Of a DNA stretch of 64,000 bases, positions 54,287 to 59,098 are shown piece after piece. Made by a program: the position numbers and the translations under genes. The first letter of the stretch is position 1. Each line of letters starts with the position of its first letter. The DNA comes from a virus, in the UHGV virus genome UHGV-0026213. One strand, 5' to 3'. The notes beneath the pieces are model-generated. The model saw nothing but the letters and a program-made list of their open reading frames with translations. It was not told the origin of the DNA and ran no database searches.

Positions 54287-54834
54287 TCATCGTCTCCTTT
54301 AATCAACCCTAATTCGATTAACAGTTCAAAATCGATATGACGGAATCTTGTGTCGAAGTCAGATTCCCAATCGATACGGATACCCTGGCATTCTTCTGGC
54401 GTTAGCTCAGGAAAAATCACGCTATTAAATTTCTCCCGCTCATCGTAAAACCCATCAATCGGTGAGTTCGGGTTACGTGTTGCGAAGATAGTAATGCCTG
54501 GGAAGGACAATGCCAACACAGTGATAGATTCTGCGCTGGGTTCGCTTAAAGAGCGGCGTAGAAACGCAATTTTGTGACGTGGGAAATCCAATACCCGCTC
54601 TTCAAACCCTGGATTACGTTTTTCGATTTCCGCGACCGACAGGTCAGTAAGTTCGGTGCAGTACATCGGGATGATCACAGTCACGCCGTGACGAATCAGC
54701 AAGCGTTTTACGTCATCGGTAAAATCTTCACCGTTAATCACCACATAACAACCGAATAGCTTACTGTTTTCCAGAAACTTATCCAGAAGTCGAATTCTAC
54801 GCTTCGTAATATTGTTGATCAGAATTGGTTTCAT
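54262..54834 (-). CDS. hypothetical protein (190 aa)
   Basis: ORF overlapping both neighbours (operon-like coupling) directly downstream of the radical SAM genes. Confidence 0.5.
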   Translation of the reverse strand: MKPILINNITKRRIRLLDKFLENSKLFGCYVVINGEDFTDDVKRLLIRHGVTVIIPMYCTELTDLSVAEIEKRNPGFEERVLDFPRHKIAFLRRSLSEPSAESITVLALSFPGITIFATRNPNSPIDGFYDEREKFNSVIFPELTPEECQGIRIDWESDFDTRFRHIDFELLIELGLIKGDDECLLLVKA

Positions 54835-56119
54835 CTTTGGCTTCTCTTAATAATTTTTCCTTTTGGGCGCGTTCACGGACACAGCGTGGACAATAACACA
54901 TACTCGTGTCGTGGAACGCTTTTGCTGACGTCGTACCCATCTTCTGTTTCCAGTATTCCGCCACCATCAGTTTCGCTGTCGTCCAGCCACACTGACGTCG
55001 TTCAGCGTGATACGCTTTACGGTCTTCTAACGTTCCTTCCCCGTTCTCGTAAGAAGCCGCCGCGCAGCTACCACAAGCGTGTTTCATCGGACAACCTAAA
55101 CAGGTCTCTGGGTAGTTGGTATATTGCGTTTGAATCTCTTCTAACAATTTACCGTTGTCCAGACTGACGAATTCCCGACCTACCAACTCAAACACCGCAG
55201 AACGTGACGTTACCGTTGACATAAAGCGGTTACAGCCAAAGATCTTACGGTCAAACCCTAAGCACGTCATGTGCGTTAACGTCCCACAGAACGGACGTAA
55301 ACGTTCTGGGTTCAACCGTACGGTGTCATTATACAGTAACTGGTCACGCCAGTTCGGTTCCCAAATCGTATCGAAATCCAACCCTTCTGGAATGATGTGC
55401 GATAAGATATTACGTGGGTTGGTGTGTAATCCTTTCTCAACCCAATAATCTATCACATCCATCATCTGTAAAGCGATTGACGTCGCCATGCTACGTGGCA
55501 TAACGTCTTCGAAAGTTACGTTTCCAGAAATTGTCCCACCGCCAGTAATGTCAATTAATGACTTCATCCCCGCAGCATAGAACGGCAGCGTTTCTAACGT
55601 AAAGGTTGCTTTTACGCCGAGCTCTGCAATGCCAACCTCTTTTAAGTAGTTATAGCCACGTACTGCGGCTTCGTAAGAACCTTGACGTGTCGTTGTGAAG
55701 ATACGGTATCGATCGTGGGACTCCGGTAAGCCGTCAATCGAAACCCCAACTGAAAGTTTGTCTTTCCAACGTTCTACAATCTCACGGTTCAACGGACGAT
55801 CTAACAGCGTTCCGTTCGTGGAGATACTAAACATAAACGGTCGGTTGTGTTCTTTGCACAACTGCTCAGCGGTTTCAAACGCAGCCAGCAGCAGTTTAGG
55901 CTGCATGAACGGCTCACCACCGATAATGTCGATAATAACTTCAACATTCGGTTCGTTTTTATCACGTTCAAAACAGGCGTGCAAGAAATCAACAATGTCG
56001 GCCGCTTTGTTGTTACGTGGGTACTTACGTTCGTAACAATATTCGCAGTCCAGGTTACACGAAAGGTTGGTTACAATCTGATACGTTAACTGCTTAGGGA
56101 ATTCATTTGCTTGGCTCAT
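54797..56119 (-). CDS. radical SAM enzyme with C-terminal SPASM-like Cys-rich domain (anSME-like peptide-modifying type)
   Basis: N-terminal CNLDCEYC (CX3CX2C); IGGEPF glycine-rich SAM motif; C-terminal CGTLTHMTC...CNRF...CLGCPMKHACGSCAA...CYCPRC clusters consistent with auxiliary Fe-S (SPASM). Confidence 0.8.
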   Translation of the reverse strand: MSQANEFPKQLTYQIVTNLSCNLDCEYCYERKYPRNNKAADIVDFLHACFERDKNEPNVEVIIDIIGGEPFMQPKLLLAAFETAEQLCKEHNRPFMFSISTNGTLLDRPLNREIVERWKDKLSVGVSIDGLPESHDRYRIFTTTRQGSYEAAVRGYNYLKEVGIAELGVKATFTLETLPFYAAGMKSLIDITGGGTISGNVTFEDVMPRSMATSIALQMMDVIDYWVEKGLHTNPRNILSHIIPEGLDFDTIWEPNWRDQLLYNDTVRLNPERLRPFCGTLTHMTCLGFDRKIFGCNRFMSTVTSRSAVFELVGREFVSLDNGKLLEEIQTQYTNYPETCLGCPMKHACGSCAAASYENGEGTLEDRKAYHAERRQCGWTTAKLMVAEYWKQKMGTTSAKAFHDTSMCYCPRCVRERAQKEKLLREAKDETNSDQQYYEA

Positions 56120-57026
56120 TTGCCGCCCCTCTATTACGCCCTGCCATCACCACACGACGAATATATTCGTACGCCTCTACACCGATAGAGAAGGCCAGTT
56201 GGTTACATCCCGATTCCAGAACGTTAGGCGCATTCTGGAGTTGGTGCTCACCGCCGTCTGCATTAATCCAAAGACTTTCGCTGCAAACGTTACACCCTTC
56301 TTCAAACACTTTACTTACCGTAAAGCCGCATTCACGACTATTTACTACATTCAGTCGTTCAATGTTGTCCTGAACCTGATAGTAGCCGTAAATAAAGTTC
56401 ATGACGTGGTCAGGCGATAAAGGTTTTGGCATTTTCGCATCTAAGAGTAACGTCATTGCACGGAAACCGTAATGGTAAATCGCGCTGTGCAGCTGAATAA
56501 TATCTTCGTGCCAGCGTTTGTCCCCTAAACGGTCCCGTGTCAGGACACCCCAAGTCTGGACATTATCCAGCTCGTAGATCGTTTCCAGTGCTTCGTAACA
56601 GCCTTCGTCAATAAAGCGCATAAACGGGCGCTCAGACGACTTAAACCCATCGATGCTAACGTAGACATTGTCAAACTGTTTTAGCAACGGGAGATGCGAT
56701 TTACGCATCTTTAAGCCATTGGTATACAACTGGTGTTTGAGTTCTGGACGAATCACTTTTAATTCGTCAACAAACGCCTCAATTTTACGGGTTGCCAGTA
56801 ATGGCTCACCACCCGTCCACTGAATTTCGGTAATGGTTGGATTAGCTTCCAGCGCTTCCAAAATTCGTTCACGTTGAAACTCTCGCGGAGAATCTTCACG
56901 ATTCATGTAATAGGCTCCACCGCAGAAGCTACAGTCCAGGTTACACTTGGACGTAGCGACTACGGACAATACGGTGGGTTTATCGTATAAACGATTCGAT
57001 AACCTTGGTTCTGCATTGGTTGTCAT
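56103..57026 (-). CDS. radical SAM enzyme (second maturase-like protein)
   Basis: N-terminal SKCNLDCSFCGG (CX3CX2C); WTGGEPLL SAM-binding motif; C-terminal CGF...GCNVCSES...GC partial Cys cluster. Confidence 0.7.
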   Translation of the reverse strand: MTTNAEPRLSNRLYDKPTVLSVVATSKCNLDCSFCGGAYYMNREDSPREFQRERILEALEANPTITEIQWTGGEPLLATRKIEAFVDELKVIRPELKHQLYTNGLKMRKSHLPLLKQFDNVYVSIDGFKSSERPFMRFIDEGCYEALETIYELDNVQTWGVLTRDRLGDKRWHEDIIQLHSAIYHYGFRAMTLLLDAKMPKPLSPDHVMNFIYGYYQVQDNIERLNVVNSRECGFTVSKVFEEGCNVCSESLWINADGGEHQLQNAPNVLESGCNQLAFSIGVEAYEYIRRVVMAGRNRGAANEPSK

Positions 57027-57047
57027 TGCAGGTGACTCCGGTCGTTT

Positions 57048-58291: not shown

Positions 58292-58293
58292 AA

Positions 58294-58692
58294 TTACCTC
58301 CCAGAACACCCACCAGAACAACTACCTGAGCAGCCTGCAGAACAGTTTCCTACACACGAGTTAGAACAACTCCCCGTACAGCTTCCTGAACAGCCACCAG
58401 AACAGGTATTCGAACATCCACTACAGCCTGCACTACAACCTGATACACAGTTTGCAGAACAGGAAGAACCACAGCCGCCTGATGCGTTCCCCGTACAACC
58501 ACCAGAACAGCTCGAACAGGTCCAGCTACAGCTCCCACCACAGTCATAGTGGTTGCGAGCTTGTCCACCGAATAAGTCTGCGTTGTTCGTCGCTTTCCCA
58601 CGAATATAGTTTTGTACTGCACCCGTATTCTTCAATGCAGTGTTGTCAATGTTATTTAGCCGCGCTTGTAGCGCAGGTAATCCAATTGCCAT
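58294..58692 (-). CDS. Cys-rich precursor-like protein 2 (leader plus about 20-Cys core)
   Basis: ATG after AAGAGGTG; N-terminal 50 aa without Cys, then DCGGSCSWTCSSCSGGCTG... with CxxxC periodicity and only G, S, T, A, N or V between. Confidence 0.65.
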   Translation of the reverse strand: MAIGLPALQARLNNIDNTALKNTGAVQNYIRGKATNNADLFGGQARNHYDCGGSCSWTCSSCSGGCTGNASGGCGSSCSANCVSGCSAGCSGCSNTCSGGCSGSCTGSCSNSCVGNCSAGCSGSCSGGCSGR

Positions 58693-58702
58693 TTTTCACC
58701 TC

Positions 58703-59098
58703 TTAGGTTGGGCCAGAACAGCCACCAGAGCAAGCACCAGAACAACCCGTAGAACAACGGCCCGAGCAAGCGCCCCCACAGGTCCCACTGCAACCTGAGC
58801 AGCCACCGGAACACGTTGAACTACATCCAGTACACTGGTTACCGCACGCGGATGAGCAGCTACCTACACACACTGACGTGCAGGTGCCCGAACAACTCGT
58901 ACAGCCATGCGTACAACCGTTTGAGCACGTCCAGCTACAGCTTCCCCCGCAGTCTAACCGACTTGGCGTCCAACCCGAAAAAGTGTCGGCGGCATTATGT
59001 GCTTTCGACGCAACTTGCGGATCAACACGTGGGCCAGTTGCCATTTGGTTCTCTACGTTGGTGATTCGGTCACGTACATTTTTAACACTGATCGCCAT
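58703..59098 (-). CDS. Cys-rich precursor-like protein 1 (leader plus about 21-Cys core)
   Basis: ATG (second Met of the track ORF) after AAGGA; leader MAISVKNVRDRITNVENQ...; core DCGGSCSWTCSNGCTHGCTSCSG... with CxxxC periodicity. Confidence 0.65.
   Translation of the reverse strand: MAISVKNVRDRITNVENQMATGPRVDPQVASKAHNAADTFSGWTPSRLDCGGSCSWTCSNGCTHGCTSCSGTCTSVCVGSCSSACGNQCTGCSSTCSGGCSGCSGTCGGACSGRCSTGCSGACSGGCSGPT

Follow-up and report, generated by a model that had tools for sequence, protein, structure and literature searches.

Introduction

The cross-linking of Cys-rich peptides by radical S-adenosylmethionine (rSAM) enzymes of the SPASM type is an active field, and PapB, CteB, and QhpD, the characterized enzymes with which we compare the system described here, all form S-C thioether links from Cys thiols. 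PapB (freyrasin) and CteB (SCIFF; PDB 5WGG/5WHY) are SPASM enzymes that form thioether rings in CxxxX-spaced cores. The acceptors of PapB are the Asp or Glu residues of C-x3-D/E units, and CteB works on a C-x3-C-T unit, in which it joins a Cys to the Thr behind the next Cys. QhpD, also a SPASM rSAM enzyme, installs several intramolecular Cys thioethers with Asp or Glu acceptors in QhpC, a single small protein with four Cys that is kept as a structural subunit in a periplasmic enzyme context. A further family of rSAM maturases, TIGR04115, has been catalogued together with its CXXX-repeat targets (TIGR04114 and Pfam PF27846, tSAM_targ_Cxxx_rpt), but this system is defined bioinformatically and, although the family is large, we found no experimental study of it in the literature searched. 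Here we analyze a relative of that system in a virus, UHGV virus genome UHGV-0026213, of which a single stretch of 64,000 nucleotides (the window) was available. On its minus strand three genes for Cys-repeat proteins (CysA, CysB, and CysC) are followed by a gene for a 299-residue protein (p299), two rSAM genes (rSAM2 and rSAM1), and a further small gene (p190).

We propose that these genes are a seven-gene phage protein-maturation cassette that makes rSAM-cross-linked Cys-repeat proteins tied to tail function, a reading to which we give a probability of about 0.55. Because rSAM1 is homologous to the TIGR04115 enzymes and the repeat grammar of the Cys proteins is identical, the system is, judged by its sequences, a divergent relative of the catalogued CXXX-repeat kind and not a new kind. 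What is new is the context, in that the family is carried by phage tail modules ranging from PBSX-like prophages of Clostridia to the 240-kb jumbo phages of Salmonella and Erwinia. An earlier model-generated reading of the window (the sequence-only reading) knew of no described phage system like this one. That statement has to be divided, as the kind is catalogued, but our full-text literature searches turned up neither an experimental description of it nor one focused on phages, and no paper on the rSAM genes of phage SPN3US, on CXXX-repeat systems, or on links between rSAM enzymes and tail fibers, including the association with tail modules. The window itself comes from a distant relative of the Seoulvirus (SPN3US-like) group of jumbo phages, which infect Salmonella, Erwinia, Escherichia, and Proteus, with about 72% DNA identity across the rSAM genes, and one IMG/VR contig of 225 kb is essentially identical to it.

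rSAM1 and the CXXX-Repeat Maturases

The gene for rSAM1 (54797-56119, minus strand) encodes a protein of 440 residues in which the cluster motif, CNLDCEYC, occupies residues 21-28 with no N-terminal extension ahead of it. The C-terminal part ends in a CxCxxC motif that is also invariant, and its other invariant Cys residues (C278, C286, C296, C340-x2-C343-x5-C349-x2-C352, and C377) fit the seven-/eight-Cys pattern with which SPASM domains bind two auxiliary [4Fe-4S] clusters and align with SPASM families, yet no Pfam SPASM match is listed at E ≤ 0.1. The top NCBIfam matches are the PapB ranthipeptide maturase (NF047865; 116.8 bits, cutoff 340) and TIGR04115 (114.7 bits, cutoff 350), followed by a long series of other SPASM peptide maturases; CteB (TIGR03974) gives 59.6 bits (cutoff 425) and QhpD (TIGR03906) a weak match of 60.7 bits (cutoff 453). 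QueE, NrdG, and MoaA are not among the top matches. Of the solved structures, CteB is the closest (5WGG, 5.8e-14), followed by anSME, and the alignment begins only at residue 105 of CteB. Hence rSAM1, with its CX3CX2C motif starting at residue 21, differs from CteB in having neither the CteB-type N-terminal extension nor a RRE, the recognition element of RiPPs (peptides made by the ribosome and modified after translation).

The relationship to TIGR04115 extends over essentially the whole enzyme. In the hidden Markov model alignment, residues 10-371 of rSAM1 match model positions 3-345 of 359, and the rSAM1 orthologue of a distant metagenomic phage contig, L003 (loci of our collection are numbered L001 onward), scores 134.9 bits, compared with 378.6 for the rSAM of L023, a true member of the family (cutoff 350). 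When the rSAM1 family was compared by hhalign with 17 bona fide TIGR04115 members, the two aligned over 358 columns with 99.9% probability (E 1.6e-32), and the CX3CX2C motif, the CX2CX5CX2C motif, and the flanking SPASM Cys residues were in register. By these alignments rSAM1 is a divergent full-length homologue of the CXXX-repeat-target maturase family.

The Cys-Repeat Proteins

The three Cys-repeat proteins are encoded on the minus strand by CysA (58703-59098; 131 aa), its paralogue CysB (58294-58692; 132 aa), and CysC (58085-58291; 68 aa, GTG start), a short paralogue. All three open reading frames (ORFs) match PHROG 6085, a PHROG family with no annotated function (1.5e-40, 4.7e-38, and 2.3e-24, respectively). 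The first Cys is at residue 50 in CysA, 51 in CysB, and 49 in CysC, and the regions that precede it are Cys-free. In CysA a Cys-free N-terminal region of 49 aa is joined to an 82-aa core with 21 Cys; the CysB core has 20 Cys and that of CysC only four. The share of Cys in the core is thus 26, 24, and 20%, in agreement with the approximately 25% given by the sequence-only reading, and the six minus-strand genes which it had listed, from CysA to rSAM1, are all confirmed as ORFs. It had also assigned each Cys gene its own Shine-Dalgarno sequence, and sequences resembling one were indeed found (AAGGA, GAGGTG, and GGAGG ahead of CysA, CysB, and CysC). Less exact was its statement that only G, S, T, A, N, or V stand between the Cys residues, since W, H, Q, R, K, and P also occur.

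Successive Cys residues are four positions apart in 17 of the 20 intervals of CysA and 16 of the 19 of CysB, the remainder being mostly three, and the repeat unit is C-[S/T]-G-x with C-[S/T]-G-C variants. The SCIFF core likewise has C-x3-C spacing, but its precursor is much smaller (about 45 aa with six Cys) than the proteins described here (68-132 aa with 4-21 Cys, and 20-21 in CysA and CysB). The junction between N-terminal region and core reads DCGGSCSWTCS in CysA and CysB and NCNGGCSWSCS in CysC, which retains the N-terminal region together with the junction Y-N-C-N-G-G-C-S-W. With TIGR04114, for which the cutoff is 20 bits, CysB scores 20.4, just over it, and CysA (14.5) and CysC (12.8) fall under it; a homologue of the three from L004 (P0007), a second distant metagenomic phage contig, gives a weak match to PF27846. 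A search of the PDB sequences with CysA returned noise only. At the level of gene architecture the locus has what is expected of a RiPP system, namely Cys-free N-terminal regions, Cys cores, and adjacent maturase homologues, and the proposal from sequence alone of Cys-rich substrates next to rSAM maturases holds in view of the matches of rSAM1 to PapB, TIGR04115, and CteB.

The region has several open frames, on each of the two strands, and public annotations of it disagree: about half of the records give no feature, and that of SPN3US uses a different frame. It might therefore be argued that the Cys ORFs are artefacts of low-complexity, GC-rich repeat DNA. For this reason the reading frame was tested by codon-position analysis. 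Between CysA and its orthologue in L009, substitutions number 11, 5, and 69 at codon positions 1, 2, and 3, and 63 codon changes are synonymous against 10 that are not. When 17-18 orthologues are aligned, every Cys column is invariant, the intervening residues vary among G, S, T, A, and N, and insertions and deletions are in-frame and keep the Cys register. The Cys count of CysA is 21 in all 17 orthologues. CysC is short in every lineage, with only two Cys in the L019-L021 clade and in L003, and in the most divergent clades the short Cys protein has little beyond Y-N/D-C-G-G-x-C-S-W. The third-position bias, the synonymous excess, the invariant Cys columns, and the register-keeping indels establish that CysA, CysB, and CysC are real genes under purifying selection. 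The artefact explanation, already refuted by the codon pattern, also has to contend with a Shine-Dalgarno-like sequence and start codon for each ORF, with homologues in unrelated phages whose neighboring proteins are 30% identical, and with a PHROG family that covers all three proteins, and we give it next to no credence.

A tblastn search with the non-repetitive N-terminus located the Cys gene in 60 phage records, about half of which have no feature at that place and the rest a ‘hypothetical’ one. Conservation of all three genes extends to SPN3US and to Erwinia phage pEa_SNUABM_29, and the jumbo-phage genomes that keep them number at least 60. The SPN3US records (JN641803 and NC_027402) do not annotate them; they lie at NC_027402.1 143191-144220, complement (L001 9167-10196), with CysC at 143191-143397, CysB at 143413-143817, and CysA at 143828-144220, and the sole feature at this locus, SPN3US_0166 / ACQ60_gp100 (143409-143744), is in the wrong frame and overlaps CysB. 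Since the true ORFs are unannotated in both records, the Cys proteins were outside the search space of the published SPN3US mass spectrometry (MS).

A Conserved Seven-Gene Cassette

The window proteins were compared by phmmer with all ORFs of 21 related loci from GenBank and IMG/VR, about 17 of which are distinct and in which rSAM1 is 63-100% identical to that of the window. The gene order is the same in all of them: gp168-like, gp167-like, CysA, CysB, CysC, p299, rSAM2, rSAM1, p190, and a DUF4376 gene. The Cys genes are 1-3 kb upstream of rSAM1 in the same operon, both here and in every related locus examined, so that the co-occurrence of rSAM and Cys-rich genes anticipated by the sequence-only reading is borne out throughout. 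All seven genes also occur in the distant contigs L003 and L004, where two Cys proteins are long and one is short and p299 is only 30% identical. Their neighbors differ (PhoH, Acb2, GroEL, and GIY-YIG), and the DUF4376 gene is absent from the L003 cassette. As the same seven genes are kept in L003 and L004 despite these other neighbors, the unit is CysA, CysB, CysC, p299, rSAM2, rSAM1, and p190. The latter (54262-54834, minus strand; phrog_7988, 2e-55), a conserved accessory protein and the last cassette gene, is outside the six-gene extent of 54797-59098 first proposed, which was hence too short at its low end. In several Seoulvirus records of the SPFM series, such as L031 (Salmonella phage SPFM1, LR535901.1 95431-109489), the cassette was matched only in short stretches with fragmented rSAM genes, which could reflect assembly or frameshift problems or real decay.

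The second rSAM enzyme, rSAM2 (56103-57026, minus strand; 307 aa; Pfam Radical_SAM 6e-14; phrog_1802), has the motif CNLDCSFC and three invariant C-terminal Cys residues (C245, C248, and C274), which suggest a single auxiliary cluster that, like that of MoaA, has an open site. Its rSAM core alone aligns with TIGR04115. In profile searches against the PDB it matched 8VPO, CteB, ChlB, MoaA, SkfB, anSME, YydG, and BtrN, and SkfB was best in the single-sequence search; the profile matches also take in a tungsten-cofactor maturase, and the PADLOC defense-system profiles showed generic viperin-core similarity only. NCBIfam matches are likewise confined to the core (MoaA 43.8 bits, cutoff 284; QueE 35.5, cutoff 260; NrdG2 33.9, cutoff 131), and with the SkfB/AlbA sactipeptide enzymes and the twitch rSAMs MoaA and BtrN, too, the alignment is convincing in the core only. 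rSAM2 belongs to the SPASM/twitch clade and probably has a single auxiliary cluster, but its chemistry is not assignable, as no part of it beyond the rSAM core aligns convincingly and every score falls far short of its cutoff. The expectation that profile searches would lead both enzymes to peptide maturases therefore stands for rSAM1 and in part for rSAM2, which matches maturases in the core and has a three-Cys auxiliary site. Neither was placed with QueE, NrdG, or MoaA, the outcome that the sequence-only reading had named as contrary to its proposal. Two loci with 93% rSAM1 identity, L009 (4563-5486) and L022 (4564-5487), have a third rSAM gene between CysA and CysB that encodes a 303-aa paralogue of rSAM2, which hints at substrate-specific pairing of the enzymes.

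The remaining cassette protein, p299 (57048-57947, minus strand; 299 aa), is a conserved accessory protein most of whose orthologues start at the methionine of MKNDL, and this would move its start in the window to 57935. With p190, no family match was found, nor any PDB match in a profile search against PDB sequences.

The Canonical CXXX-Repeat Family Is Found in Tail Modules

Distant Cys-rich homologues led to gut-metagenome phage contigs in which a gene for a 204-aa Cys-repeat protein is followed by those for two small proteins and then for a 447-aa rSAM that is a true TIGR04115 member (378.6 bits, cutoff 350). This canonical version resembles that of the jumbo phages in the full-length homology of the rSAM enzyme, in the C-[S/T]-G-x grammar, in the adjacency of enzyme and substrate genes, and in being phage-borne, usually in tail modules. 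In the proteins of both versions Cys is followed by S/T (about 80%), then by G (about 50-70%), and then by any residue. On the other hand, the jumbo-phage version has in addition a second rSAM of smaller size and a constant set of three substrates of which one is truncated, and its hosts are Enterobacteria infected by lytic jumbo phages, compared with the prophages of Clostridia and the gut phages of the canonical version. That the two accessory proteins of the canonical version (about 181 and 110 aa) are fused in p299 was considered and rejected, as the hhalign probabilities were 0.2% and 0.2%, and p190 did not match the canonical accessory protein either.

The TIGR04115-like family comprises 2,399 protein clusters at E ≤ 1e-20. 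A genome scan that used a single rSAM sequence gave no matches, but an alignment-based scan, in which each species was represented by one genome, recovered 467 relatives of the canonical rSAM, nearly all in Clostridia and Bacillota, and a further 401 were found in IMG/VR viral contigs. A Cys-repeat ORF is beside the rSAM gene in about 70 of the 80 canonical loci that were kept (upstream in 50 and downstream in 20). The 121 flanking ORFs of 42 loci (43 were selected and one duplicate dropped) were scanned with Pfam, and the matches are dominated by Baseplate_J, YQBQ, the DUF6558 tail protein, GpU, the gp41 hub, Dit, portal, amidases, and GH25, the non-phage share amounting to only about one locus's worth. 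In Desnuesiella massiliensis (LN879456, around 155-167 kb) the module ends the tail operon of a PBSX-like prophage, in which sheath and further genes are followed by baseplate J, Gp48, fiber, a protein of 213 aa with 28 Cys, proteins of 185 and 113 aa, the rSAM, holin, and amidase. In gut phage contigs it comes after Phage_fiber_2 or Phage_fiber_rpt/PTR genes or lies between fiber genes and those for Phage_tail_C/Big_2 proteins, and in one such contig, L029, there are tail genes on both sides.

In canonical substrates a conserved N-domain of about 110 aa precedes the Cys core, which is hypervariable. Many are 300-500 aa in length with 60-96 Cys, and the large ones have longer Cys arrays behind the same N-domain. 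Some depart from this plan. In L079 (11948-12946), L087 (7014-8003), and L088 (11727-12692) the substrates are inverted, with the Cys tract first and then a conserved non-Cys C-terminal domain that ends in ...YVRTLMAQNIKA, and their genes are downstream rather than upstream of the rSAM gene. A 228-aa ORF of L025 (8929-9615) with 58 Cys is without the N-terminal domain and comes directly after P0010, a Cys-repeat protein with a leader, and the gene for a 999-aa PTR-type tail fiber; L033 has a comparable leaderless protein of 345 aa with 88 Cys.

The Tail-Gene Operon of the Window

The region corresponds to gp161-gp168 of SPN3US. Directly upstream of CysA is the gene for a 401-aa coiled-coil virion protein (59166-60371, minus strand; phrog_2163 ‘virion structural protein’, 1.6e-103), the orthologue of SPN3US gp167, and before it that for the C-terminal part of a large gp168-like tail/baseplate-fiber protein (60406-64000, minus strand; phrog_7449, profile positions 574-1708), whose ORF reaches the window edge still open. 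The SPN3US protein gp168 belongs to the tail and resembles gp131 of phiKZ, which is at the baseplate periphery (PMC5105663), and gp168, gp169, and gp170 are baseplate/tail-fiber candidates that are missing from a tailless mutant (PMC5694885). The virion list of this phage contains gp167-gp173 and none of gp161-gp166, and gp167 was detected in virions and not assigned to the head (PMC5694885 Suppl. Table 1). Hence tail proteins are the products of the genes upstream of the Cys trio, and the downstream enzymes and helpers are non-virion proteins.

The final gene of the co-directional minus-strand unit (53615-54286; Pfam DUF4376 5e-11, with weak PHROG tail-fiber matches) is the orthologue of SPN3US gp161. 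It is followed by a bidirectional hairpin resembling an intrinsic terminator (53563-53593) with a 12-13 bp stem and T tracts on each strand. Apart from this hairpin, the terminator scan found no minus-strand terminator-like site between 54286 and 62191, and because the sole strong one comes after the DUF4376 gene, the cassette is part of a longer co-directional unit. The original placement of the cassette between tail-fiber genes and a terminator is accordingly right on its upstream side, where the encoded proteins belong to the tail (PMC5105663; PMC5694885), and not on the other, where p190 and the DUF4376 gene precede the terminator. The GC content over the cassette is unremarkable. There is a discrepancy in the source that matters because gp161 is the DUF4376 protein that ends this operon: the text of PMC5694885 puts gp161 in head paralog family B, but its Suppl. 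Table 1 has gp160 and not gp161, so that ‘161’ looks like a typographical error.

Strong terminator-like hairpins at 51755-51782, 52959-52984, and 53563-53593, with stems of 10-13 bp and bidirectional in two of three cases, divide short convergent or divergent gene blocks. Sigma-70 promoter-like sites are not enriched in the window, as expected of a phage with its own RNA polymerases. Two tandem paralogues on the plus strand (52409-52954 and 53020-53550; phrog_4862) are relatives of gp160 of SPN3US, a head protein that is highly abundant and belongs to paralog family B, and that is single copy at that position in SPN3US; in Erwinia phage pEa_SNUABM_29 three genes of similar size are annotated at the matching position, the likeness being one of size and position. 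About 3 kb from the cassette, two endolysin-like genes (phrog_315 and phrog_894) flank a ‘tail assembly chaperone’ gene (phrog_1158) at 49806-51671, plus strand.

What the Cassette May Make

The rSAM1/TIGR04115 enzyme and the Cys-repeat protein are the sole components shared by otherwise different modules and are adjacent nearly everywhere, and because of this the Cys-repeat proteins are, on comparative grounds, very probably the substrates of the rSAM1-type enzyme. The mechanism that we envisage is as follows. The cassette would be transcribed late, as part of the tail-gene operon, and CysA, CysB, and CysC would be ribosomally made substrates whose N-terminal region of about 50 residues serves as a recognition or assembly handle. 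rSAM1 would bind them and by 5′-deoxyadenosyl radical chemistry turn many of their Cys residues into intramolecular cross-links. The likeliest product would be an S-C thioether to a neighboring residue, although by analogy thioether chemistry as such has no better than an even chance of being correct. The C-x3-C-T unit of CteB matches the C-x3-C-[S/T] grammar of the present proteins, which suggests the Ser or Thr after the next Cys as the candidate acceptor and a ladder of overlapping small rings as the product, which may be a stiff, protease-resistant rod. rSAM2 probably adds a second type or set of modifications, and p299 and p190 would be system-specific helpers, possibly for substrate presentation or processing. 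The mature product would then work with the tail/fiber apparatus as a virion-attached accessory or an assembly component.

A tail or virion role of the product is the part about which we are least sure, and we would put it slightly below even odds. It is judged likelier than that of a classical exported antibiotic because the same enzyme-substrate pair is in the tail modules of unrelated myo-, sipho-, and jumbo phages, and it is further favored by the position inside a structural operon, the fixed length and Cys count of CysA, and canonical substrates that are full-size proteins, the largest reaching about 500 aa and about 90 Cys. QhpD and QhpC are a precedent for such a structural product. 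That the Cys-repeat proteins are themselves tail or fiber components of the virion, their tracts stapled into a thioether-ring rod, is a more speculative step that we regard as rather unlikely; if so, the rod of the jumbo phages might assemble from the A/B/C trio through their shared N-terminal regions.

Several observations weigh against this reading. All NCBIfam scores of rSAM1 are far under the curated cutoffs, and the N-terminal regions of the substrates, about 50 aa in the jumbo phages and about 110 aa in the canonical proteins, have no detectable homology (hhalign 0.2% after removal of the Cys tracts). Nor are the accessory proteins related (p299 and p190 as against proteins of about 165-185 and 100-113 aa). 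The thioether assignment rests solely on the nearest characterized relatives, and the cores contain no Asp or Glu, the acceptors used by PapB and QhpD, so that an acceptor of the PapB or QhpD type is excluded. No match of p299 to any known fold was obtained, the single-sequence AlphaFold2 model of p190 (pLDDT, the predicted confidence score, of 44) is unusable, and family-profile scans of the cassette proteins detected no RRE/PqqD-like domain, protease, or transporter. With respect to the tail, the cassettes of L003 and L004 are not beside tail genes, the N-termini of the Cys proteins show no similarity to the adjacent gp167-like coiled-coil virion protein, and a Rosetta-stone search found no fusion of a Cys tract to a recognizable fiber domain. 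Virion MS of SPN3US did not have the Cys ORFs in its search database and thus gives no direct support for their presence in the particle. Moreover, the gap between fiber and lysis genes in temperate phages is the classic slot for accessory ‘moron’ genes, and since that slot also takes morons, adjacency alone is no proof of tail function.

Many of these same points are what make a RiPP released at lysis a serious rival: the lack of a fiber-domain fusion and of similarity to gp167, the position of L003 away from tail genes, the moron slot, and a proteome that offers no support. In such a scheme the leaders would be removed by p299, p190, or a host protease, the rigid peptides would be freed at lysis as a bacteriocin, a signal, or an agent against competitors, and the location next to tail or lysis genes would reflect late expression or a moron insertion site. 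The leader/core architecture with several precursor paralogues is typical of RiPP clusters, PapB and CteB, the nearest characterized enzymes, make free ranthipeptides, and the canonical N-domain with its hypervariable core resembles a long-leader precursor. Many prophage modules are just before holin and lysin, and the rSAM enzymes are not virion proteins in SPN3US. However, none of the versions of the system showed a leader peptidase, a transporter, or an immunity gene, and the canonical substrates, at 300-500 aa and 60-96 Cys, are far larger than known ranthipeptides. The SPN3US-like cassette, with its unremarkable GC content, is inside the structural operon and not at its end with its own signals, and the L029 module is enclosed by tail genes. 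In addition, a CysA length and Cys count that are fixed over deep divergence fit a dimensional constraint better than an arms-race toxin, and on balance we think it doubtful that the product is a released peptide. A quite different view would be that the Cys proteins bind metal or Fe-S clusters or are rich in disulfides, in the manner of a metallothionein or a solenoid, and are structural parts or a store of metal or clusters, with the rSAM enzymes acting on a tail-fiber protein, a nucleotide, or a cofactor. Dense CxxxC/CxxC arrays are indeed good metal ligands, rSAM enzymes need Fe-S clusters to whose supply a Cys-rich partner could relate, the matches of rSAM2 include MoaA, the tungsten-cofactor maturase, and viperin-like cores, and no modification has been observed to date. 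Yet what the jumbo-phage and canonical modules share is exactly the signature of an enzyme-substrate pair, with adjacency at about 70 of 80 genomic loci and at every jumbo-phage locus examined; the relatives of rSAM1 are overwhelmingly Cys-dependent peptide cross-linkers, and the matches to nucleotide or cofactor families are weak and limited to the core (43.8 bits against 284 for rSAM2 with MoaA), all of which makes a metal-binding role improbable.

Significance

The cross-linked, tail-associated product that we favor would have consequences for a large family. The tail-module context moves the question away from which antibiotic the CXXX-repeat systems make. We know of no earlier case of a structural part of a virus particle being built by radical chemistry of the RiPP type, and if the stapled virion rod is real it would be the first, and the TIGR04115 family, with hundreds of phage and prophage members, would be a tail-maturation system. 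The analysis also exposes an annotation gap, in that the reference annotation of a model giant phage, SPN3US, omits or mis-frames three conserved genes, which have been invisible to its proteomics. As genetics and MS data sets are available for SPN3US, the question is directly testable. The outcome might be a virion modification that affects host recognition or particle stability, or a class of phage peptides released at lysis, and either would be new biology as well as a source of very rigid peptide scaffolds.

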